The position numbers were made by a program, and so were the translations under genes. 64,000 nt of DNA, taken from Polaromonas sp. GTDB taxonomy: Bacteria > Pseudomonadota > Gammaproteobacteria > Burkholderiales > Burkholderiaceae_C. Below, in pieces: positions 1 through 58,818 of the stretch. How positions within the stretch are numbered: the stretch's first letter is position 1; each line of letters begins with the position of its first letter. The notes below the pieces were generated by a model. The model was not told the DNA's origin, did not search any database, and worked only from the letters and a program-made list of their open reading frames with translations. The stretch lies in assembly GCA_043778205.1 (NCBI GenBank), contig JAYWGO010000012.1, positions 10,029 to 74,028 of the forward strand, given 5' to 3'.

Positions 1-1066
1 AACCAAAGGCAAACTGGTCAACTACCTGCAAGCCTGCAGCCTGTGCTTGTTTGCGAAACTCAGCAGGGCAAGGCAGGCAGCCGCCCGGGAAAATGTACTG
101 CTGGATAAAGTCGGTCGAGTTCACGTAGCGGGCAAACAGCGCATCGTCTATCACGATGGACTGGATGCAAGCGCGGCCACCGCTTTTAAGCAGCTTGGCC
201 ACGGCGGCAAAGTAGGTGGGCCAATAGGCTTGGCCCACGGCTTCTAGCATTTCGATAGAGCAAATTGCGTCGAAGGGTGCGTCGGCAATGTCGCGGTAGT
301 CTTGCAGGCGCAGGTCGGCTTGGCTGCTCTGGCCTGCGCGTTGCATGCGCGCTTGCGCCCAAGCCAGTTGCTCGGTAGACAAAGTAACGCCAGTGGTGTG
401 GGCACCAAATTCAGTGGCCGCTTTTTCTGCCAGTGCGCCCCAGCCGCAGCCTATTTCTAGCACCCTGTCGCCGCTTTTTACGCCGGCCATGCGCAGCGCG
501 CGGCGCACCTTGGCGTGCTGGGCCTGCACCATGTCTTGGTCCAAGTTACCCTCAAACCAAGCCGATGAATAGTTCATGGTGTCGTCTAGCCACAGGGTGT
601 AGAACGCGTTGCCCAGGTCGTAATGGGCATGGATATTTTTTTGGCTGTTGGCTTTGGTGTTGCGGTTAAGCAGGTGTTTGACCCGGTAGGCCAAGCGGCC
701 CAGCCAAGTGCCATACACCATGTCTTCCACCTCACGGCGGTTGGCCACCAGCACGCCCAGCAAAGCGGCTATGTCGGGCGATGTCCAGTGGCCGGCAATG
801 AAGCTTTCGGCAAAGCCAATGTCGCCCGACTTGAGCGCAGCCGCGCAGACCGACCAGTCGTGAATGTGCAACGCCGCTTGCGCTGCAGAGGCTTGGCCAA
901 AATGCTGCACACTGCCGTCGGGCAAGGTAACTTGCAAGCTGCCGTGCTGTAGTTTGCGCAGCAGCTTGAGACAGGTGCGCGCGGCAGCGGGGATTGAGCT
1001 GGAGTGTTTAACCGAGCGCGCGGTTGCGGCAGACATCGAGGCAGACAAAGGGTTAGTCGGGTTCAT
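1..1066 (-). CDS. cfa: cyclopropane-fatty-acyl-phospholipid synthase; the 3' end runs off the window start
   Basis: My reverse-strand translation from ATG at 1066..1064 reads MNPTNPLSAS...DRVLEIGCGWGALAE (SAM-binding GxGxG)...CSIEMLEAVG...QQYIFPGGCLP. It is absent from the ORF track because there is no stop inside the window. Confidence 0.85.
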   Translation of the reverse strand, partial: MNPTNPLSASMSAATARSVKHSSSIPAAARTCLKLLRKLQHGSLQVTLPDGSVQHFGQASAAQAALHIHDWSVCAAALKSGDIGFAESFIAGHWTSPDIAALLGVLVANRREVEDMVYGTWLGRLAYRVKHLLNRNTKANSQKNIHAHYDLGNAFYTLWLDDTMNYSSAWFEGNLDQDMVQAQHAKVRRALRMAGVKSGDRVLEIGCGWGALAEKAATEFGAHTTGVTLSTEQLAWAQARMQRAGQSSQADLRLQDYRDIADAPFDAICSIEMLEAVGQAYWPTYFAAVAKLLKSGGRACIQSIVIDDALFARYVNSTDFIQQYIFPGGCLPCPAEFRKQAQAAGLQVVDQFAFG

Positions 1067-21670: not shown

Positions 21671-22912
21671 ATGACCGGCCCCCACACTGCCATGCGCAAG
21701 GTGTGGTTGCTGGCGGCCACCACCACGCTGACAGTTACCTCGTTTGCCATGCTGGGTCCGGTGCTGGCCGTGCTGTTGCACCAGCGCGGGCTGGGTACAG
21801 CGGCGATTGGTGCGTTTGCGATGATTGGGTTTAGCTGTGTGGCGGTGCTGATTCCTATCATGCCCCGGCTGTTTATGCGCTGGGGTTTGGGCCGCTGCTT
21901 TACCATTGGCGCCGTGCTGGAGGCGGTAAGCACCGTGGGCTATGTATTTACAGACCATTTTGCGGTGTGGTGCGCATGTGCCGCCTTGGGCGGAGCGGGC
22001 GGGGCTGCCGTTTGGAACGCAACCGAGTCGCTGCTGGCGCAGCACGCACCGCCGGCCCAGCGCGGGCGGGTGATGGGCTTGTACCAAACGGCCTTGGGCG
22101 CAGCACTGGCGGCCGGGCCGCTGCTTCCCGCACTGCTGGCTTGGCAGGCACCCACCACGCTGTGGGCCGGTGCGGCCATACAGTTTGCCGCGCTGGGTGT
22201 GATTTTGCTGACCGGTGTGGCCAGGCAGCTGGCACCGCACCCTTCTGCTTCTGCTTCTGCTTCTGCTTCTGCCACAGCGAATTCGGCTGTAGCAGGCGCA
22301 GGCCATGTCAGCGCGCCCAATGCGTCCGGTGGCACGTGGGCGGCAGTGCGCAGCGCGCCCGCCTTGGTGGCTATTGCGTTTGTCGGCGGCGTGTTTGAGG
22401 TGGGTCTTAACAGCATCAGCGCGGCCAACGGCGCTGGCATGGGCCTGTCGCTGGCGCAGGCCTCTGGCATTGTGGGCATGCTGGGGCTGGGCAGCTTTTT
22501 GTTCCAATACCCTGCAGGCATGGCAGCTGACAGGTACCCGGCCAGCAAGGTATTTGCAGCGGCTGGGGCGGTGCTGTTAGTGTCCACCGCAGCCTTCACG
22601 CTAGGCGGTCAATACCTACCGGTGCTATGGGCTACGGCTTTGCTGTGGGGCGGCGTGGGCGGCGCGCTGTACACCCTGTGCATGGTGCGTGTGGGCCACG
22701 ACTTTGCCACAAGCGCTACAGCTACGGGCGCTGGCGTTACAGGCACCGCAGCCGCAGGCACAGCGGCCATGATCAGCGGCTACACGCTGGGCGGGGCTGT
22801 GGGGCCTGTGGTCAGCGGTGCCGCGCTGCAATACGGCGGGCCGCTGGGGCTGGCCAGCTGGCTTGGAGCGCTGGCAGTAGGCGTAATACTGCTTGGCCAG
22901 CGGGTGCGCTAA
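21671..22912 (+). CDS. MFS transporter
   Basis: About 413 aa and highly hydrophobic, with about 12 TM-like segments. The central loop carries an (SA)5 repeat. Confidence 0.75.
   Translation: MTGPHTAMRKVWLLAATTTLTVTSFAMLGPVLAVLLHQRGLGTAAIGAFAMIGFSCVAVLIPIMPRLFMRWGLGRCFTIGAVLEAVSTVGYVFTDHFAVWCACAALGGAGGAAVWNATESLLAQHAPPAQRGRVMGLYQTALGAALAAGPLLPALLAWQAPTTLWAGAAIQFAALGVILLTGVARQLAPHPSASASASASATANSAVAGAGHVSAPNASGGTWAAVRSAPALVAIAFVGGVFEVGLNSISAANGAGMGLSLAQASGIVGMLGLGSFLFQYPAGMAADRYPASKVFAAAGAVLLVSTAAFTLGGQYLPVLWATALLWGGVGGALYTLCMVRVGHDFATSATATGAGVTGTAAAGTAAMISGYTLGGAVGPVVSGAALQYGGPLGLASWLGALAVGVILLGQRVR
22243..22272 (+). repeat. (TTCTGC)x5 hexanucleotide microsatellite inside the MFS gene
   Basis: Five perfect tandem units, encoding SASASASASA in the central loop. 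Confidence 0.9.
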
Positions 22913-35424: not shown

Positions 35425-37194
35425 CTACATCTTAGTGGGTGCGGACACACCCAGCACCGCCAGGCCGTTGCGCAGCACCTGGGCTGTGGCGCTAACGAGC
35501 GCCAAACGGGCTTTTTTCACGGCCACGTCGTCTACCAAGATGCGCTCAGCATCGTAGTAGCTATGGTACTGGCTGGCCAGGTCGCGCAAATAAAAGGTCG
35601 CATCATGCGGGGCAAAGCCTTGGGCGGCATTGGTCAGCATGTCGGGGTATTTGGCCAATACCAACATCAGCGCCTGGGCAGCGGGGGTGTTGAGTGGGCT
35701 GAGGTCTGCCGCGTTCAACGCATCTGCCTTGCCGCCGTCTTTCTCAAACCAAGCAGCCAATACCGAGCAAATGCGGGCGTGGGCATATTGCACGTAGTAC
35801 ACAGGGTTGTCGTTGTTTTTGGCCACGGCCAAGTTCACATCGAAGGTGTATTCAGTGTCGGGCTTGCGGCTGAGCAAAAAGAAGCGCACTGCGTCTTTGC
35901 TGGTCCACTCGATCAAATCGCGCAGCGTGACATAGCCGCCTGCGCGTTTACCGATTTTGACCTCTTCACCGTCTTTGATCACCCGCACCATGGTGTGCAG
36001 CACATAGTCGGGGTAGCCAGGCGCTACGCCCAAGCCTGCAGCCTGCAGGCCCGCGCGCACACGGGCAATGGTGCCGTGGTGGTCAGTGCCTTGGATGTTG
36101 ATGGCGCGCGTGTAGCCGCGCTCCCATTTGGCCAGGTGGTAGGCTACGTCAGGCACAAAGTAGGTGTACTGCGGGCCTGCCTTGGTTCCGTCCGCGTTGT
36201 CTGAAGTTGATTTGCGCCCGTCGGCACCGTCAGGGGCTGACTTTCTCATCACGCGGTCTTTGTCATCGCCATAGTCGGTACTTTTGAGCCACAGCGCGCC
36301 GTCTTGCTCGTAGGTTTTGCCCGCTTTCACCAGCAAATCTACCGTTTTGTCTACCCGCCCGCTGGTATACAGGCTGGATTCTAAAAAGTAATTGTCAAAC
36401 TTTACCTCAAAGGCTTGCAAGTCCAGGTCTTGCTCGTGGCGTAAGTAAGCGACCGCAAACTGGCGAATGCTGTCAAGATCGTTCACATCGCCACTGGCGG
36501 TAAAACTGCGGTCGTCTGCCTGTACGGTTTTTTGGGCTAAGAAGTCGGCGGCAATGTCGGCAATGTAGTCGCCGTTGTAAAAACCTTTGCTTTCGGGGTT
36601 GTCTGGGTCGGTAGGCCAGCAGGCATCGCCCGGCTTAAAGCCTTTAGCACGCAACTGGGTGGACTTGGCCAGCGTAGCAATCTGCACCCCAGCGTCGTTG
36701 TAGTAAAACTCTCGGTACACCTGCTGGCCCTGGGTGGCCCACAGGTTGCAAATCGAGTCGCCCAGCGCCGCTTGGCGACCATGGCCCACGTGCAGCGGGC
36801 CAGTGGGGTTGGCGCTGACAAACTCCACCATCATCTTTTGGCCAGTTTCTTTTTGGTAGCCATAGCAGTTGCCTTGCGCCAGCACCTCACGCACCACCTG
36901 CTGCTTGGCCTCGGGTTTAAGGCGAAAATTAATAAAGCCAGGCCCGGCAATCTCCACCGCAGCCACCCAGTTGCTAAACGCCTGTGTTTTCAAAAGCGAC
37001 TCGCGCAAAGTCTCGGCTAAAGCACGCGGATTGAGCTTAAGCGTCTTGGCCAGCTGCATCGCCGCCGTGCAGGCAAAGTCCCCATGCTCGGCCACCTTGG
37101 GCGACTCCAGCGCCGCCCGCGCGCCTGCGCCAGGACTCAAAGATTCAAGTTCGCCAGCCAGCGCGGCCAGCAGTTGTTGTTTCACTAATTGCAT
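35425..37194 (-). CDS. argS: arginine--tRNA ligase
   Basis: 589 aa. Class I signature [14 protein letters not shown], and a GKRAGG stretch at the position where a KMSKS-like loop would be expected (position judged by eye). Confidence 0.95.
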
Positions 37195-37290
37195 AGGGGG
37201 ATTTTACGGGGGATGTTGGCCAGGGCCGCCTGCACACATTAAGGTGTTCTTTAATATTCTCGTAGCCTATTAAAGAACTCTTTAATTGCG

Positions 37291-37731
37291 CTAGCCAACC
37301 ACTACCTGTACACCCACCAAAGCCATGCGCGCCGCTGCTGCCTGCCCATGGTCAAAAGTGACGAAGTGGGTAGCACCCAAACGCGCTGCTATGACAACAT
37401 GCAGTGCATCCGCCGCCCGCAGCGGCTGGCTGGCAATTTGCACGGCCAGCTCGCCTGCTCGAACAATGTCAGTTGAGAGCGTGGGAGCGGAAGCAAACTT
37501 GGCGGCACGCAGCACATCCAAGGCCGAAGCCACGGCGGACACATCAGCCGCGTCAATCAAACCCGCTCGGTGTTTGGCCGCGATGGCGCAGCGGTACTCA
37601 GCACAAGCCCAGTCGCTGCATACACCGCGCAAGCCCTGCGCCATCAAGCGATTGACCAAAGCCTGCGCTGCGTCGCTGCCCGTCTCTGCCGTGAGCAGCG
37701 CCACGGCCACGCTCGTGTCCAAGTAGAACAT
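37291..37731 (-). CDS. vapC: type II toxin VapC (PIN domain)
   Basis: 146 aa. Starts [13 protein letters not shown] (first PIN Asp), with later acidic residues. Preceded by a small antitoxin gene. Confidence 0.8.
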
Positions 37732-37744
37732 CAGCCTGCGCGTG

Positions 37745-38026
37745 TCAGTAGCGCGCGCTTTGCCGCCACTGGGCTACAAAATTCTCTGCACTGGCAGGTG
37801 CACGCGACTTGCTGCGCGTTTGAGCAACAAAGCCAGCGATATCGCCCAGCCCGGTGGGCACTTGACTGGAGGGCGTTACTTGCAAGCCATCCGCTTGCGT
37901 ACCCGACACCAAGATCAGCTTGTAACTAGGCCTGCCGTGCTTTGCGATGACCACCTCTTCCCCTGAGTCCACCAAACTGGCGAGCTCGCTGAGACGCGCT
38001 TTGGCTTGGGCTAGGCCGTATTGCAT
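37745..38026 (-). CDS. type II antitoxin (Phd/YefM-like)
   Basis: 93 aa. [27 protein letters not shown] is the typical Phd/YefM N-terminal pattern. Confidence 0.75.
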
Positions 38027-38281
38027 GGTGATTTCCTAAAAATAGTCACTAAATGATCATAATTATAGTCTATGAATGACCTAAAGTCAATGTCGGCCTG
38101 CGGAGTTCTCCCAAAACCGTCAAGGCCGGTCACGTACACCCCGTGTATTTGCGCCGCTAGCAATTCCGGTCAACTTTCCCAAATCGGCACCGTTCGTCGG
38201 CTTGGGCATTACCAGGCTTTTCACATCGTTGAGCAACAAGGTCACCAACGCTATCAAGCCCTCCACATAGCTTGGCTCCAC

Positions 38282-38596
38282 CTAGAGGTAACCCTCGTAT
38301 TCTGCCAAGTTGCGTTTGTTATGGGCGCTGTCGAGCTGCCGCCACTGCACCGCCGTCCAGCCCACGGTGTGCTGCAGCGTTTGAAACACCAGATAACGAT
38401 TTTCACTGCGATACCCATGCCAGCGCAATGCTGCCAAGCCCGCCGCATGCCCCACGGAATAGGCGGATATAAAGCGCCCTTCCAGTGAATTGGATTCTCG
38501 CTTGGCATCCTCAAGATGCTTATGCGCCATTGCCAGCAAACGCTCCACATCCAGGGCACTGGCTGGCTCAGCTTTGAGTTGCCCAATTTTCACCAA
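38282..38596 (-). CDS. small helical protein downstream of the wHTH-nucleotidyltransferase gene (HEPN-like partner, tentative), ending at an in-frame TAG
   Basis: 104 aa. RNLAEYEG resembles an Rx4-6H HEPN motif but the His is absent. The reading frame stays open for 53 more codons after the TAG (see findings). Confidence 0.5.
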   Translation of the reverse strand: MVKIGQLKAEPASALDVERLLAMAHKHLEDAKRESNSLEGRFISAYSVGHAAGLAALRWHGYRSENRYLVFQTLQHTVGWTAVQWRQLDSAHNKRNLAEYEGYL

Positions 38597-38614
38597 ATTT
38601 TAGCGCAGTGCTGT

Positions 38615-39187
38615 TCATGCCACGCTCCCATACAGCACCTGAATGGGCCCGGCCAGAATGCGCTGCACTACCGACCCGGTTTCTGCACGGCGGGCACTGA
38701 ACTCGCTTGGCATATACAGCTTCACCTCAATGCGCCGCCCCAGTTGCTCCTCCAACGGGAACAGCACAGCCAGCGCATCACCCAGCTGCACACTGCTCGA
38801 TACCAGCAGCACATCCACATCGCTACCCGCATGCTCAGTGCCCTTCGCCACAGAGCCAAACACCAGTGCTACTTGCAGGCGGCTGGCCAGCGGGCGCAGC
38901 GCATCTGCAATGGCCGGCACAGCCCCAAGCGTCTTGCGCACCAGATTGGCCAAATCCGCAAACACCGGGCTATCAGGATTGGCCTTCACCCGGCGCAGAT
39001 TGCCAATGCGTTCCTCCACCACCAGGCCTGCCACATGCAGCCGCTTGATCTCCCGCTGTAGGGAAGCACTGGCCAACGAGGTCAAGCGGATCAATTCTTG
39101 AATATGGAACCAGCGCTCAGGCTGGCCAAACACCCACTCCAGGACTTTGGACTGGGGTTGTGTGAACAGGGCTTGGACGGACGGCAT
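38615..39187 (-). CDS. winged-helix plus minimal nucleotidyltransferase (MNT-type) protein
   Basis: 190 aa. NTase motif FGSVAKGTEHAGSDVDVLLV. The N-terminal ~70 aa are wHTH-like (LIRLTSLASASLQREIKRL). Confidence 0.75.
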   Translation of the reverse strand: MPSVQALFTQPQSKVLEWVFGQPERWFHIQELIRLTSLASASLQREIKRLHVAGLVVEERIGNLRRVKANPDSPVFADLANLVRKTLGAVPAIADALRPLASRLQVALVFGSVAKGTEHAGSDVDVLLVSSSVQLGDALAVLFPLEEQLGRRIEVKLYMPSEFSARRAETGSVVQRILAGPIQVLYGSVA

Positions 39188-39195
39188 GTACTAAA

Positions 39196-39217
39196 TTTTA
39201 GCATGATTGTGCTAAAA
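39196..39217. promoter_or_regulatory. perfect 8-bp inverted repeat just upstream of the wHTH-MNT gene (candidate autoregulatory operator)
   Basis: TTTTAGCA-tgattg-TGCTAAAA, 9 nt upstream of the start codon. Confidence 0.35.
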
Positions 39218-39456
39218 CAAGCTTCAACGGACTGATTGCCTTGTTTAATACCGCAAGTGTGTTGGCAACGGATCGAGTGCTGTTTTTCCTACAGCACAAC
39301 GAATCACGCAAGCTCTACTTATCTGCGCCACGACCAATACCTGCAAATTCGCCCACAACAAAATGCGTAACTACTCGCAGGCGCGCTGCGACTTGGGTAT
39401 CAGTCATCGGTTTTTGAACACAGATTTGGGGTGCATGCAACGCCGTCGCGTAAAGG

Positions 39457-40924
39457 TCACATCGGACATGCAGCAAATGTTTGCTGGTTTAGGTGGAAAC
39501 ATGCCCCTGAATCTGTCTGAATGTATAACTCATCTTTGACCCAGAACGCATTTTTTGCCAGCCCCAGTTTGTTTAATGCAAAAGTCGTTGGGTCGTTTGG
39601 AGCAGAAGTGGTCGGCGATGGCTTTGGCCCTATGTCTAACCAATATTTACGAAACGAGAACGACCCAGGCCAAAGCGACCCAAACGACCGCGAGAAACTC
39701 CAACCTTCTCCATTGATCGGAAAATTCGTTGCCGGGTCATTAACGTAATGAGCGTCGTTGGTAATGACGCATCGTTGAGCTAAGGTGCATGTGCGATCAA
39801 TGCGTCGGCCAGCGGGAATTATCCAGTCGCTAGCGGGCACAAAGTAGGTAGCGCAAAGCCCATTGAGATAGGCAGTATCAAAACCCCATGCGTTGAACGA
39901 AGCCCAACTAGCGCGATAACAGCGTTCGTTCGATTTGTACACATTGGAGGTATCGATGTAAATATCTCCACGCTTGCTGAAACGCACTGTTTCAACTCGC
40001 TGTTCCGTTATGTTGGAACGAGCAAAACCACCCCCTTTGTACCCAATACCTACCGACACGCCTGTCGCTTTAAAAACAAGCTCAGTACCAGACGAAGCGG
40101 TACCAAGATAATTATTCTCAAGCAATCCAAACGTCATCGTGTTTGCCGGATTCTCAAAATAGTAGTTTTGTTTTGCTGTGCCTAATACGCATGGACTGTC
40201 CCAAGTGCATAGCGCGGCTGTTAACAGGCACGGGGAGTTTCCTTGTAAGCCACATGTTTGCTGCGGCAAGAAAGCTGTATCAACTGTCTTAAAGCTCAGC
40301 TTTTGCTGCGCATCAATCATGATCGCATCTGCGCCCCAATACGGAGAAAAGCCAGCAACGGTTATCGTATAGTTCGTGGCATAGTTCAAGGTGAACGTGA
40401 CGGGAATGTCAATGGTAAAACCGCTTGAACCTCTAGAAATCGCGGGGAAATTTTGCGTACCCTTTGGTCCTTCAAGAGTTACTGTGGCACCGGGTACTAT
40501 CTCCCCCAATGTTCCATTCACAGCGGTAAGTATGTTGGTGCTGGTTTGCCCGTTCGAATATGTGAAAGTTCGGGTTCGTTCATTACCATCCAAATCCGAA
40601 AACTTGAACCGCAACTCCCCCGGGTGCAGCATCTGCACGTTTTTAGGCAGGACAGTCAGACCGATTTTGCATTGCGATGTGCTGGTGTATCCAACTGGTG
40701 CAAAAGTCCCATTTCCACATGGAACGGAAACTGGCGCAGTTGGGGTCGGCGGTGCAACAGGCGTTACTGCAATCGGCGGGGGTGGTGTAGCTGACGGAGG
40801 GTTAGTAACTACAGCAGGCGCTACAGGTGTTGGACTAGAATTACCCCCCCCCCCCCCCTCCGCATGCGACTAATTGAAACAACATGGCAATTGCGCTGAG
40901 AAATTTAAGTGACTTTGAATGCAT
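39457..40924 (-). CDS. low-GC lipoprotein of unknown function, interrupted by a frameshift in a poly-G tract
   Basis: ATG at 40924..40922 encodes MHSKSLKFLSAIAMLFQLVAC (lipobox LVAC), followed by G15. The frame stops right after the tract. The 393-aa track ORF (39457..40638) stays open upstream through a Pro/Thr/Ala linker to the same tract in another frame. Confidence 0.7.
40844..40858 (-). repeat. homopolymeric tract, 15 G on the coding strand (15 C on plus)
   Basis: Counted directly: C run from 40844 to 40858. Confidence 0.95.
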
Positions 40925-41207
40925 TTGCACCGCCGTAATGGTTAGGTAGTTGAATAAATGTAGGTGATCATTCTCAATTTCGACTTTGCCTTCTCAACCA
41001 AATGTGAATGGCTCTGCGTCGAACTGCTTTGTAAATTATGACTCACATTTACACAATTGGCTACACCCTGTGTGACGACTTCACAAATGCGCATGGGCTC
41101 TGCAGCCTTGCAAGCCAACAGGTAGGATGAACTGTAAAGTGCGCTCAAAATATTCAAAGCTCTCTTGGCCTAGGGCGTTTTCATGAAAAAACAGAGCCCA
41201 CGGCAGT

Positions 41208-41570
41208 CTACGCCGTCATGGCTTCCAGCTTGGCAAGCGCTTCGTCCATCACCTCCACAGGAACCGTCTCTATCCGCTTTGCATGTCTGGCCTGCCAGTC
41301 GAGCACGCGGCACTGGCTGATGACGGCTGCGCCTTGGGTTTGCGTGCCTGCCCCCATGAGTGTCACGGCCCAGCCTGCTACCCGTTCAAAATTGCCTTGT
41401 GTGATGGGCGCAACCAATGCGCGGCCTAGGCGGTTAAATTCCTGGTTGGACAGAACCAGCACCGGGCGTGTGCCTTGGATTTCACTGCCTAAAGTGGGGT
41501 CCAGGCTGATGAGCAGCACATCGCCTTGCTTGGGCGTTTTGCCTGCCGGTTTTTGCACTTCGCCACTCAC
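41208..41570 (-). CDS. mazF: MazF/PemK-family mRNA interferase toxin
   Basis: 120 aa. GDVLLISLDPTLGSEIQGTRPVLVLS...LVAPIT. Confidence 0.85.
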   Translation of the reverse strand: MSGEVQKPAGKTPKQGDVLLISLDPTLGSEIQGTRPVLVLSNQEFNRLGRALVAPITQGNFERVAGWAVTLMGAGTQTQGAAVISQCRVLDWQARHAKRIETVPVEVMDEALAKLEAMTA

Positions 41571-41827
41571 AGCGCTTCGCTGCCCACAGGCGGCATGTCT
41601 TGCCAGTTTTGCAAATCAGCGGGCATGGGCATTTTCAAATTACATTGCTTGTTGAGCTCAGCGGCTGTGTAGCGCTTGCGGGTGGGTTTGGGGCGCAACA
41701 CGATAGCGTTGTTGGCGGTACGCTCTACCAGCAAAGACTGGCCTATGAAAAAATCCATGTCGCGCAGCAAGGCCGGCGGCAGCGTGAGGCCCGCAGAATT
41801 GCCCAGCTTGCGGATGATCAGCTCCAT
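41567..41827 (-). CDS. mazE: AbrB/MazE-family antitoxin
   Basis: 86 aa. IRKLGNSAGLTLPPALL (SpoVT/AbrB swapped-hairpin motif). 4-nt overlap with the toxin gene. Confidence 0.8.
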   Translation of the reverse strand: MELIIRKLGNSAGLTLPPALLRDMDFFIGQSLLVERTANNAIVLRPKPTRKRYTAAELNKQCNLKMPMPADLQNWQDMPPVGSEAL

Positions 41828-41895
41828 ATGGCACTCTCTATATCAAACAATGTATGACATTGTGCCACAGAGTTATCCCTCCTGCATTGGCAGCG

Positions 41896-43803
41896 CTAAA
41901 ACGCCAACGCCCGCTCCACAAAGTCCGGTGCCACTTTGGTCTTGGGCACCTTCATATCAAACCAACTGCGCACATTGCTGTATAGCCCGATGCCGTGCAT
42001 GTAGTTGTACAGCGCCTTGTTCAACGCAATGCCTAACGCATCGTGGTCGGTGCCAGTGGGGTCGATGAAGGCGATGTCGTTTTTGGCGAACTGGCCTTCG
42101 GGCAGGGCCACTAGTTTTACACCGTAGTCTTGCGGGGCCATGCCTACGGGGGAGTGGACGGTGCAGGCGAAACGGTGGAAGAAGCCGCTTTGGATGCAGC
42201 CTGCGGCAAAAAGCTGGCGCACATACTCTAGTGCGTCCACCGTGTCTTGCACGGTTTGGGTGGGAAAGCCGTACATAAGGTAGGCGTGCACCAAGATACC
42301 TGCGTCTGAGAAGCCTTTGGTGACGCGGGCGACCTGCTCTACCGACACGCCTTTTTTCATGAGCTTGAGCAGGCGGTCTGACGCGACTTCTAGACCGCCG
42401 CTGATGGCAATGCAGCCGCTGTCGGCCAGCTCTTGGCATAGCGCGGGGGTGAATGATTTTTCAAATCTTATGTTACCCCACCAGCTGATGGCGGTGTTGC
42501 GCGCTTGCAGCTCGGCGGCCAGGGCTTTGAGGGCTTTGGGTGGGGCGGCTTCGTCTACGAAGTGAAATCCGGTTTGGCCGGTTTCGGCGACTATGGCGTC
42601 GATGCGATTTACCAGTTCTTCGGCTGTGGTGCCTTCGTAACGACTAATGTAATCCAGGCTCACGTCGCAAAAGCTGCACTTCTTCCAGTAGCAGCCGTGC
42701 GCCACCGTCAGCTTGTTCCAGCGGCCGTCACTCCACAGGCGGTGCATGGGGTTGAGCATGTCGAGCAGGCTCAGGTATTTGTCTAGCGGCAGGCCATCCC
42801 AAGTGGGCGTGCCTACGTCGCTAAACGGTACGTCGGGCTCAGCTAGGTTGATGTATTTGACCTTGCCACCCTCGTCTGCAGAAGCACGCGTGAACGTGCG
42901 CACCAGCCGTTGCAGGCCACGCTTGCCTTGCACATGCTCCAAGAGCGCAAGCAGCGGGCGCTCGCCTGCGTCCAAGGTGACGAAATCGAAGTAATCAAAC
43001 ACGCGCGGCTCGGCCAGCTCGCGCAGTTCGGTATTAACATAGCCGCCGCCCAGCACCAGGGTGGTATGCGGGCTGTGCGCTTTGATGGCTTGGGCGATGC
43101 GAAAAGCGGCGTAGACCGAGCCAGGGAAGGGAACGGACAAGAGCACAACGGTGGGCTGGTGTTGCGCGAAAGTTTGCAGAGCAATGTCGACGAGTGCGCT
43201 GTCTACCAATGTCAAGGGCTGCGCCAACGCCTCAGCCAGCGGATCAAACGTAGGCTGGCTGCCCGCTAGCGACTCAGCATAACGCACAAACTCAAAGCGC
43301 GGGTCGATCGCGTCTTTCAACACGTCGGCCAGATCGTTGAGATACAACGTGGCCAAATGCCGCGCCTTGTCTTGCGCGCCGAGTGCGCCAAAGGCCCAGG
43401 CCAGCGGGTCGCCGCCCTCGTCGTCTACATACACTTCCAGCGCCTCAAAGCGCGGGCCTTCGGGCAAAAAGCTGCGTGAATTAATGCGGTGGGCCAGGGT
43501 GGAGTCTTTGCCTTGTAAAAAATTGATGGCAGCGGTGATGGTGGCGGCGTAGCGGGGCAATTGCTCCATGAACAGTGCCACGCGCTCGGTGGTTTGCTCG
43601 TGCTGGTCAATTTCAGCGTGAATTTGCTGCAACCCGTCTTTGGAAAACAAACGCAACACCAAAGCCAGCGCCACATCCGCCTGCACCGCATCTACCCCGC
43701 GCGAGCGCAAAAAGCCAGTGATGTAGGCGGTAGACGGGTAAGGCGTGTTGAGCTGCGTCATCGGCGGGATGAGCGACAGCACACGCAAAGGCTTGGGATT
43801 CAT
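41896..43803 (-). CDS. B12-binding-domain radical SAM protein
   Basis: Start at MNPKPLRVLSLIPP (43803). Radical-SAM cluster motif CYWKKCSFCD. The track's 56-codon N-terminal extension overlaps the divergent MNT gene and is rejected. Confidence 0.85.
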   Translation of the reverse strand: MNPKPLRVLSLIPPMTQLNTPYPSTAYITGFLRSRGVDAVQADVALALVLRLFSKDGLQQIHAEIDQHEQTTERVALFMEQLPRYAATITAAINFLQGKDSTLAHRINSRSFLPEGPRFEALEVYVDDEGGDPLAWAFGALGAQDKARHLATLYLNDLADVLKDAIDPRFEFVRYAESLAGSQPTFDPLAEALAQPLTLVDSALVDIALQTFAQHQPTVVLLSVPFPGSVYAAFRIAQAIKAHSPHTTLVLGGGYVNTELRELAEPRVFDYFDFVTLDAGERPLLALLEHVQGKRGLQRLVRTFTRASADEGGKVKYINLAEPDVPFSDVGTPTWDGLPLDKYLSLLDMLNPMHRLWSDGRWNKLTVAHGCYWKKCSFCDVSLDYISRYEGTTAEELVNRIDAIVAETGQTGFHFVDEAAPPKALKALAAELQARNTAISWWGNIRFEKSFTPALCQELADSGCIAISGGLEVASDRLLKLMKKGVSVEQVARVTKGFSDAGILVHAYLMYGFPTQTVQDTVDALEYVRQLFAAGCIQSGFFHRFACTVHSPVGMAPQDYGVKLVALPEGQFAKNDIAFIDPTGTDHDALGIALNKALYNYMHGIGLYSNVRSWFDMKVPKTKVAPDFVERALAF

Positions 43804-43867
43804 GAGGTGATTATCTCGCGAGAAGCATCTAGCGCTAAAGCTGGGCAAACAGGGCGATAATCTGGGC

Positions 43868-44248
43868 ATGTTCAGCGAATTAAAGCTACTTTTTGCCGAA
43901 AAACCTAGAGTCCACTTGGCTGTGGTGTTCGGCTCTGCTGCGCGTGGTGCATTAAAGCCTGAAAGCGACATAGATGTTGCCGTGCTGCGCGATAGCCCGC
44001 TTAGCAGCAGCGAAAAACGCGATTTGGTAGAGCAGTTGGCCGTGATAACAGGCAGAGCCGTTGATTTAATAGATTTGGCTACAGTGGGTCAGCCTTTGTT
44101 GGGTCAAATTATCAAAGATGCTACGCGCCTTAAAGGGTCGAACAGCCAGTTTGCGCAACTTATGGCGCGCAATGCCTTTGAACAAGCCGACTTTATGCCC
44201 TACGTAACGCGGCTTTTGAAAACAAGGCGTATGGCATGGACCGGGTAG
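43868..44248 (+). CDS. mntA: MNT-type nucleotidyltransferase antitoxin
   Basis: 126 aa. VVFGSAARGALKPESDIDVAVL (GSx10DxD). Confidence 0.8.
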   Translation: MFSELKLLFAEKPRVHLAVVFGSAARGALKPESDIDVAVLRDSPLSSSEKRDLVEQLAVITGRAVDLIDLATVGQPLLGQIIKDATRLKGSNSQFAQLMARNAFEQADFMPYVTRLLKTRRMAWTG

Positions 44249-44470
44249 TCCTCGATCAAAAATTAGAATCGCTGCGCAAATGCGTTGCCAGAGTGCAATC
44301 TAAGCGGCCAGCCACCCTCGAAGCGCTGGTGACCGATGTTGATGCGCAAAGCAGTGGGCTTTCGCAATCTTGCAGTGCACAACTACGATACGATTGAATG
44401 GGCGGTGGTGTTTGCCATCGCAACCGAACGTTTAGACGACTTCAAAATGTTTGCTAGGGCTTTTGCCTAA
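44236..44470 (+). pseudogene. hepT: HepT (DUF86/HEPN) toxin remnant with an internal deletion and frameshift
   Basis: Frame 1 from ATG 44236 reads MDRVVLDQKLESLRKCVARVQSKRPATLEALVTDVDAQ and then runs into nonsense and a TGA at 44395. The +1 frame from about 44351 reads AVGFRNLAVHNYDTIEWAVVFAIATERLDDFKMFARAFA-stop, which contains the Rx4H motif. Confidence 0.7.
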
Positions 44471-58444: not shown

Positions 58445-58520
58445 AAAAACCCCCAGCAGCGCTGGAGACAAAACCCCCAGCAGCGCTGGAGGCAAAAAAA
58501 AGCCCCAGCAGAGCTGGGGC
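58445..58520. repeat. three imperfect tandem ~24-bp units in the hemJ-hemB intergenic region
   Basis: AAAACCCCCAGCAGCGCTGGAGAC / AAAACCCCCAGCAGCGCTGGAGGC / AAAAAAAAGCCCCAGCAGAGCTGGGGC. Each unit carries a CCAGCAGCGCTGG core with the internal palindrome CAGCGCTG. Confidence 0.85.
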
Positions 58521-58818
58521 GGGAAATGCCTTTTTTGTTGTCACACATCGAGGCACCCGCTCAGGGAGGAAAAGCGGGAAGTGGCGAACCACTCACTATC
58601 AAATATAACAAACACACCAGCGAATTACAAGGCGGCAAATTGTTAAATTTGGCTAGCAGGTAGCACCAATTGTTATAGAGTCTCGCGCGAGACAGCTAGA
58701 CGCGCATGGGGCTGTGGTTTGCGCAGAGTGGTTATTACTTAAAATCATTAGACAAACAAATGCCAGCCAACCAAGCGCCACAGCATGGCCATAAGTCTGT
58801 CCAACCTTGGGGCTCTGA

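Follow-up and report, generated by a model that had tools for sequence, protein, structure and literature searches.

A poly-G tract of variable length behind the lipobox points to slipped-strand phase variation of a Cys-rich lipoprotein in a stream-dwelling Polaromonas

A 64,000-nucleotide stretch of a Polaromonas sp. genome (contig JAYWGO010000012.1; hereafter the window, in whose own coordinates positions are given) carries on its minus strand a gene for a predicted Cys-rich lipoprotein, in which a run of 15 G close behind the lipobox Cys codon sets the signal peptide and the remainder of the protein in different reading frames. In public metagenome assemblies the run occurs with 11, 14 and 15 G on an otherwise invariant background, and a distant relative of the gene has a frame-shifting repeat of its own. 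These data support the proposal, made in a preliminary description of this DNA, that the gene encodes a slipped-strand phase-variable lipoprotein; that the locus is a contingency locus switching an exported Cys-rich lipoprotein in this way we hold at a probability of about 0.72.

The minus-strand ATG at 40924..40922 opens the peptide MHSKSLKFLSAIAMLFQLVAC, with the Cys codon at 40864..40862. GGA and five GGG codons follow, and then a TAA at 40841..40843 which closes the signal-peptide frame, giving a product of 27 aa. The tract itself, exactly 15 G, occupies 40844..40858 (a C run on the plus strand) and encodes a Gly linker right after the lipobox Cys, in what we call the OFF state. The body of the protein lies at +1 relative to the signal peptide (39457..40845, minus strand; 462 aa plus stop): this frame begins with GGT at 40845, reads GNSSPTPVAP... 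and stays open until the stop at 39459..39457. A tract of 14 G gives a fusion of 488 aa with a mature body of 462 aa, 17 G gives 489 aa, and 11 G is also in frame, so that the full-length lipoprotein measures 487–489 aa across the three lengths. With 16 G, translation meets a stop 7 codons further on; both OFF phases, 15 and 16 G, thus terminate almost immediately after the tract, within 0–7 codons. The 393-aa product of the open reading frame (ORF) finder (39457..40638) covers part of the body frame only. The start codon, the run with its immediate stop, the second open frame and the fusion of the signal to a body of ~460 aa at 14 or 17 G had all been read from the letters in the preliminary description, and each was recovered from the window sequence.

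Several features set the tract apart from its surroundings. It is the sole G/C run longer than 6 in the window, where the second-longest is 6, and base composition predicts ~0.001 runs of at least 15 G/C over this length. GGG is a minor Gly codon here (11%, versus 69% for GGC), and the tract is therefore not a matter of codon preference. In the calling of Neisseria phasomes, genic tracts of G 9–20 and C 9–16 are recorded, with a threshold of G≥9 (PMC5953494); the 15 G found here exceed this PhasomeIt threshold, and they lie at the 5' end of the ORF, where gain or loss of length toggles the frame. The surrounding DNA has a G+C fraction (GC) of 0.47–0.50 over ~39000..41250 against 0.589 for the whole window, in agreement with the lower-GC patch described earlier.

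Tract lengths in other copies were measured in the DNA of public metagenome-assembly contigs, which are consensus sequences and stand as a proxy for reads. A protein search returned an in-frame version (P0001), 100% identical, and the N-termini of the members of its 90% cluster imply differing tract lengths. At the DNA level, the tract has 15 G (OFF) in the window and in contigs L009, L010, L011, L012 and L015, 14 G (ON) in L001, L013 and L016, and 11 G (ON) in L014; of the three lengths observed, two (11 and 14) thus keep the frame. Protein calls place six contigs in the ON state (P0001, P0005, P0007 in three and P0009) and at least nine in the OFF state (P0006 in eight and P0008). The length heterogeneity that the preliminary description had proposed to look for was accordingly found by this proxy, within the limits of consensus contigs. 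An exact DNA pattern scan of JGI metagenome contigs for a variable-length tract gave 0 matches, and a protein-pattern scan of the same contigs found no relative.

The background on which these lengths vary is close to invariant. In the 21,429-bp alignment of L001 with the window there is no mismatch, and the single gap, of 1 nt, is the tract. Within 36457..41895 the copies show no substitution beyond one single-nucleotide polymorphism (SNP) in L016 and one in L014; the sole indel there is the tract, from which it follows that it mutates far faster than its surroundings. Length polymorphism among near-identical genomes, a mark of contingency loci, is therefore present as 11, 14 or 15 G with 0–1 SNP in at least 5 kb. 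Relative to the window, L010 and L016 carry 127 SNPs and L013 carries 41, all within the radical-SAM gene 1–3 kb away, and these copies are better regarded as linked haplotypes than as different strains. The 14/15 difference is seen on haplotype A (15 G in the window, 14 G in L001) and again on haplotype B (15 G in L010, 14 G in L016; over 7,176 bp only 1 mismatch and the tract separate these two contigs). As the same difference occurs on two haplotypes, the length has changed more than once. Such a pattern would be expected from localised hypermutation.

The radical SAM / B12-binding-like ORF that bears the haplotype differences lies at 41896..43971 (minus strand), where the substitutions amount to 63/kb for L010/L016 and 20/kb for L013; the adjoining 5.4 kb has none of the haplotype-marking substitutions. 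This divergence suggests either an imported, mosaic recombination segment or divergent alleles maintained in the population.

Could the lengths instead be an artefact of sequencing or assembly, with a single true length (for example 14 G, hence an intact gene) and the 14/15 calls being Illumina homopolymer miscounts? Long G runs of 14–15 G are error-prone in Illumina sequencing. In addition, the reads were NovaSeq short reads (PMC9021309), some assemblies may share samples, and the L015 contig breaks, or is chimeric, precisely where the tract lies, a sign that assemblers struggle there. Set against this, 15 G is found in at least five assemblies made by three pipelines (MEGAHIT k141, BUSI22 scaffolds and Logan), 14 G is reproduced in at least five contigs, 11 G is too far from 14–15 for a consensus miscount, and there are no other indels in 21 kb. 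The distant homologue, moreover, has its independent frame-shifting repeat in a 7-nt unit that is not prone to such error. Taken together, these observations make an artefact improbable, although the difference between 14 and 15 G could partly reflect homopolymer noise. The L015 junction itself (positions 1..99 of ENA ERZ28573552 scaffold_159329) consists of 93 nt of unrelated DNA joined exactly at TGCGGA+G15, probably a chimeric join or a graph break at the homopolymer, and it yields the odd protein start MAVGAEGGGGG of P0008.

The signal peptide, MHSKSLKFLSAIAMLFQLVA-C (40862..40924, minus strand), ends in the lipobox LVAC with Cys21 and a Gly at +2. Its layout, MHSKSLK-FLSAIAMLFQLVA-C, comprises an n-region with two Lys and an h-region with a mean hydropathy of 2.2; LVAC fits the classic lipobox [LVI][ASTVI][GAS]C, and the signal is 21 residues long. 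By a stricter pattern of the PROSITE PS51257 type, the window allele, P0002 and P0003 miss only by a Gln at -4, and the L002, L019 and L020 members match. The Cys and its Gly-rich junction are kept in all seven lineages. The lipoprotein signal is supported by these features, and lipidation and localisation are predicted from it. In the body frame the tract is followed by a Pro/Ala/Thr/Ser-rich flexible linker (NSSPTPVAPAVVTNPPSATPPPPIAVTPVAPPTPTAPVSVP; 40720..40842, minus strand), of low complexity and variable length among homologues, which may act as a tether.

The family is small. Four 90%-identity clusters match out of 5.8 billion proteins, and of 1.84 billion representatives only 8 score at E≤1e-3 or better. 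Identity among the four close lineages is 57–65%, with 12 invariant Cys in the mature part and no internal stops, and the pairwise ratio of nonsynonymous to synonymous divergence (dN/dS) against homologues is 0.13–0.20, at saturated dS. From the open frame, the low ratio and the invariant Cys we conclude that a real exported protein is encoded. Between the window and the sister species described below, dN is 0.267 in this gene, five times that of argS (0.053), and the protein is thus fast-evolving yet selected. Three of the close lineages have a GC of 0.46–0.50 in the gene against flanks of ~0.59 (0.51 in the fourth), and in the sister species the lipoprotein gene occupies the same mazEF–argS position. 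The low GC is therefore a long-standing property of the gene, with no sign of recent import, and recent horizontal acquisition was rejected as its simple cause.

Searches for a relative of known function gave little. The protein had no Pfam match at E≤1, in line with the earlier remark that no motif was recognised in it, no relative in a PDB sequence search, no padloc-type clue to function, and a single marginal PHROGs match (E 0.004). NCBIfam matches to fusolisin and SslE fell on the signal and linker, far below cut-off, and were set aside as spurious low-complexity matches. A scan of IMG/VR viral contigs with a 4-sequence alignment found no relatives, and neither did tblastn against GenBank phages and PLSDB plasmids; a phage- or plasmid-borne gene, such as one for a superinfection-exclusion lipoprotein, was rejected as a candidate because no homologue was found in these three collections.

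The homologues differ in what follows the Cys codon. The ON alleles of L005 and of L006, L007 and L008 have GGGGGCGGGGGG and GGGGGGGGCGG there, respectively, and L020 is ON without a repeat. By contrast, the sister Polaromonas species (L002, L003, L004 and L018) has GGGGGGAGG-TAA and is OFF. By this comparison the Gly linker built from G-rich codons is ancestral, and expansion past the slippage threshold is confined, among the lineages compared, to the species of the window. The sister tract, TGC-GGGGGG-A-GG-TAA (L002 1490..1513; L003, L004 and L018 alike), leaves the body intact in the same +1 phase, and the orthologue is annotated as a truncated protein of 385 or 418 aa.

A fixed out-of-frame allele of this kind, with a tract that is short, interrupted and poorly mutable, is what would be expected if the Gly codons had expanded by chance into a hot spot and the ON/OFF alleles were transient stages on the way to a pseudogene. 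Such non-adaptive decay would also suit a family that is very rare and patchy, the placement of the gene in a variable region rich in toxin–antitoxin modules, and the aberrant C-terminus of P0013, which suggests disruption. Decay sits poorly, however, with a body that is free of stops and under strong purifying selection in all lineages, with the conservation of a promoter-like block upstream, and with the frequent occurrence of in-frame alleles, a -3 variant (11 G) among them. With the tract at the very 5' end, moreover, a frameshift makes a clean, reversible null, and a different N-terminal repeat in a second member of the family is hard to credit to chance alone. We consider decay unlikely.

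The out-of-frame alleles raise a further alternative, namely that programmed +1 ribosomal frameshifting at GGG-UAA, or transcriptional slippage on the G run, leads to expression of the 15-G allele, in which case a nominally OFF tract would still permit a certain amount of full-length product. The same +1 shift is needed in both out-of-frame lineages, in each of which the stop directly ends a G-rich run resembling a Shine-Dalgarno sequence (GGAGGGG...GGG-TAA in the window, GGGGGGAGG-TAA in L002), and tRNA-Gly could re-pair at +1 within a G run. This recalls prfB, in which such a sequence stimulates the +1 shift required at the stop that follows it. Unlike in prfB, the need for a shift is not conserved over alleles and homologues, since most of them are in frame (L001, L013, L014, L016, L005, L006–L008 and L020), and the locus does not qualify as prfB-like for that reason. 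The shared TAA follows trivially from shared GGT-AAT codons, and the P-site codon AGG of L002 cannot re-pair on GGU. Recoding is thus a very improbable account of the locus; leaky slippage on G15 could nonetheless accompany switching at the DNA level.

Further support for slipped-strand switching comes from P0016, encoded on the 75-kb contig L019 (JGI 3300081962, contig Ga0673016_0000090), which is 25% identical to the window protein and keeps the cysteine pattern. Here the ATG (7873) and the lipobox lie in different frames, and between them, within the signal-peptide coding region, is (CTGGCGG)x4 at L019 7906..7933. With these 4 copies translation stops after 21 aa, and with 2 or 5 copies the product would be a full-length protein of 513 or 520 aa that starts MQNFKKSSFAKLAAGGLVLALISAC-GGGGS and has a canonical lipoprotein signal. 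Gene callers begin P0016 at a downstream GTG and so lose the signal peptide. The repeat is the only one of such kind in the 17-kb L019 locus, and for units of 6–9 nt PhasomeIt asks for at least 3 copies (PMC5953494), a number that it exceeds. Like the window gene, the L019 gene is low in GC relative to its flanks and adjoins a toxin–antitoxin pair, PaaA2/ParE. The occurrence of two different N-terminal frame-shifting repeats in one small family argues that switchability is selected, and in L019 it has apparently arisen independently within the family.

Upstream of the gene, a consensus scan picked out a promoter-like TAGCCA-17 nt-CATAAT at 41035..41063 (minus strand). It overlaps a 28-nt block, CAATTGTGTAAATGTG(A/C)GTCATAATTTA at 41032..41059, which is invariant in the window, L002 and L005; the other upstream DNA has diverged, and the coding regions of the three alleles that share the block are only ~60% identical. 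The block is unique in the window, is found at all window-type, L002-type and L005-type loci, and includes a CAATTG palindrome and the -10-like CATAAT. It was not found upstream of the L006, L019 and L020 homologues. On sequence grounds it may comprise a promoter plus an operator.

Structure prediction gave a partial view of the mature protein. AlphaFold2 with 4 sequences reached a mean predicted local distance difference test (pLDDT) score of 38.6, with the linker segment (40720..40842) below 50 throughout; a second run, on 6 sequences with the N-terminus trimmed, returned an all-beta model at pLDDT 58.6. Foldseek against the PDB gave template-modelling (TM) scores of ≤0.2 only, scattered over immunoglobulin (Ig)/FN3 and beta-propeller folds. 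Judging by weak profile matches, the folded part may open with an Ig-like beta-sandwich of the Big_5/SbsA type (~40279..40641, minus strand), as profile positions 122–193 align with tandem Ig-like repeats in P0018 (E 2.5e-6) and P0019 (8.7e-4); the Pfam models for Big_5 and SbsA_Ig gave no match at E≤1. The first folded domain may therefore be an Ig-like sandwich, and the remaining ~270 residues form a Cys-rich domain.

The gene stands among toxin–antitoxin modules, as the preliminary description had stated. Directly upstream is a mazE–mazF (MazE/PemK) pair at 41208..41827 (minus strand), which is syntenic in the sister species (L002). Downstream, also on the minus strand, are an MNT-type nucleotidyltransferase (NTP_transf_2; 38615..39187) with its 104-aa partner (38282..38596), a Phd-like antitoxin (37745..38026) with a PIN toxin (37291..37731), and then argS. 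Toxin–antitoxin or addiction modules lie beside the lipoprotein gene in L005, L006, L019 and L020 as well as in the window, and across the lineages they comprise MazEF, ParE/PaaA2, MazE-like/PIN and Fic/VbhA with RadC. Elsewhere in the window, an intact MNT-type nucleotidyltransferase at 43868..44248 has beside it a 53-aa ORF (44236..44397, plus strand) with no Pfam match; in the same region of L001, an identical contig, a 44-aa HepT-like fragment was called, apparently from a different start. The 53-aa ORF looks like a truncated HEPN toxin in a decaying toxin–antitoxin pair. A perfect hexanucleotide repeat, CTTCTG x5, is found at 22242..22272; its 6-nt unit cannot shift the frame, and it would at most vary the length of a protein or a spacer.

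The sole match among GTDB species representatives is the metagenome-assembled genome (MAG) Polaromonas sp. GFS_11898, the sister species, whose flanking genes have 83–95% DNA identity to the window. The identical and near-identical contigs come from assemblies labelled BUSI22-1, which points to the study of glacier-fed stream epilithic biofilms by Busi et al. 2022, sequenced on a NovaSeq, in which Polaromonas was abundant and prevalent (PMC9021309). An Rfam anti-hemB small RNA (sRNA) of the Burkholderia type (RF02837, 63.7 bits; 58494..58580, minus strand) fits an origin in the Burkholderiales; directly adjoining it are a tandem repeat with a 24-nt unit (2.2 copies, 58446..58497) and the only A8 run of the window (58494..58501). 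From the assembly label, the GFS_11898 relative and the sRNA, we conclude that the host is a bacterium of streams, free-living and adapted to cold. The link to host-adapted pathogens that the preliminary description had drawn from the mechanism does not apply to this glacier-stream relative of Polaromonas.

By analogy, the proposed mechanism is that of the classic Neisseria and Campylobacter loci with poly-G/C tracts in coding regions. In Neisseria, hpuA (a lipoprotein component of the haemoglobin–haptoglobin receptor), pilC, nalP and lgt genes likewise have a G/C run of ~9–20 nt toward the 5' end of the reading frame, which in hpuA and pilC lies in the 5' coding region. Poly-G/C genes of Neisseria likewise show slipped-strand translational ON/OFF switching of envelope proteins, lipoproteins among them, with lengths that differ among near-identical genomes. 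The Polaromonas gene differs in that it has no sequence or family relationship to these genes and belongs to a free-living psychrophilic stream bacterium rather than a host-restricted commensal or pathogen, and in that one such tract is seen in 64 kb, with no sign of a phasome of many genes. In Helicobacter pylori, oipA and other hop genes have CT dinucleotide repeats in the signal-peptide coding region. The L019 gene resembles oipA in that a repeat within the signal peptide sets by its copy number the frame between signal and mature protein, and differs in having a heptanucleotide rather than a dinucleotide unit, an unrelated sequence and an origin on an environmental contig, with no copy-number variants observed yet. 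To our knowledge, nearly all documented cases of phase variation driven by repeats come from host-adapted pathogens and commensals.

Campylobacter jejuni likewise has poly-G tracts within ORFs, there of surface-structure genes, typically G8–G11 at many loci of a low-GC genome, in contrast to the single G11–15 tract at 59% GC here. Repeat number sets the switching rate in Campylobacter, and mixtures of ON and OFF cells allow escape from phage (Bayliss 2012 and Sorensen 2012, as listed in the review PMC11868660). A comparable phage link at the Polaromonas locus is a hypothesis drawn from this analogy. Mycoplasma Vlp, Vsa and Vpma proteins are lipid-anchored surface proteins subject to stochastic ON/OFF expression (PMC11868660), but they form multigene systems that work by promoter poly-A tracts or site-specific inversion and have repetitive antigenic domains, whereas the Polaromonas gene is single-copy, with a tract in its coding region and a Cys-rich globular body. 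The novelty lies in the protein family, in a host that is free-living and cryospheric, in ON/OFF polymorphism seen in nature and in the apparent convergent second switch.

In the model that these comparisons favour, we infer slipped-strand mispairing in replication as the process that would alter the tract length, together with its rate and reversibility. Tracts of 11, 14 or 17 G would join signal peptide and lipobox in frame to the 462-aa body, and the protein would be exported and lipidated at Cys21. With Gly at +2 it would probably be sorted to the outer membrane, anchored there through a tether of ~40 residues rich in Pro, Ala and Thr, and it may be surface-exposed and disulfide-bonded. 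At 15 or 16 G, translation would end within 0–7 codons and no protein would be made. A population would then always contain both ON and OFF cells, the window representing an OFF allele. The presumed benefit would be bet-hedging between recognition by a phage, predator or competitor and the role of the protein in biofilm life. The cost of the protein would vary with conditions, recognition by phages or predators being its most likely source, and adhesion in algal biofilms would be a plausible benefit.

Several points weigh against slipped-strand switching. The lengths come from consensus contigs, in which within-sample heterogeneity is not seen directly; the assemblies are Illumina NovaSeq assemblies, and some are maybe re-assemblies of the same samples. 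The window has a single contingency-type tract in 64 kb and no sign of a wider phasome. The sister allele is uniformly out of frame in 4 samples, whose contigs are 100% identical and represent one clone, and it looks like plain inactivation rather than switching and shows that the gene can be dispensed with. Finally, no clue came from Pfam, the PDB, PHROGs or padloc-type searches and the structure models are poor, so that surface exposure is only hypothesised. The broader proposition, that switchability has evolved at least twice by different repeats in an orphan family of Cys-rich lipoproteins from free-living Burkholderiales of cold freshwater, that ON and OFF forms exist in wild glacier-stream biofilms, and that this serves as bet-hedging, most plausibly against phages or predators, we advance tentatively, at somewhat less than even odds.

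These results provide a clean candidate for phase variation in a cryosphere bacterium that is free-living and abundant, and whose ON and OFF alleles can be seen to occur naturally across public metagenomes. As a practical consequence, the '393-aa hypothetical protein' calls in MAGs are to be read as truncated annotations of a 488-aa lipoprotein. The ratio of ON to OFF alleles could be read from metagenomes sample by sample and related to virus abundance, season and glacier influence, which would put bet-hedging theory to a direct test in the field. The locus also draws attention to this disulfide-rich family of lipoproteins, on which strong and fluctuating selection probably acts, for example as phage receptors or adhesins. 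If the proposed switching is true, contingency loci would be at work as active bet-hedging in environmental biofilms, outside a host.

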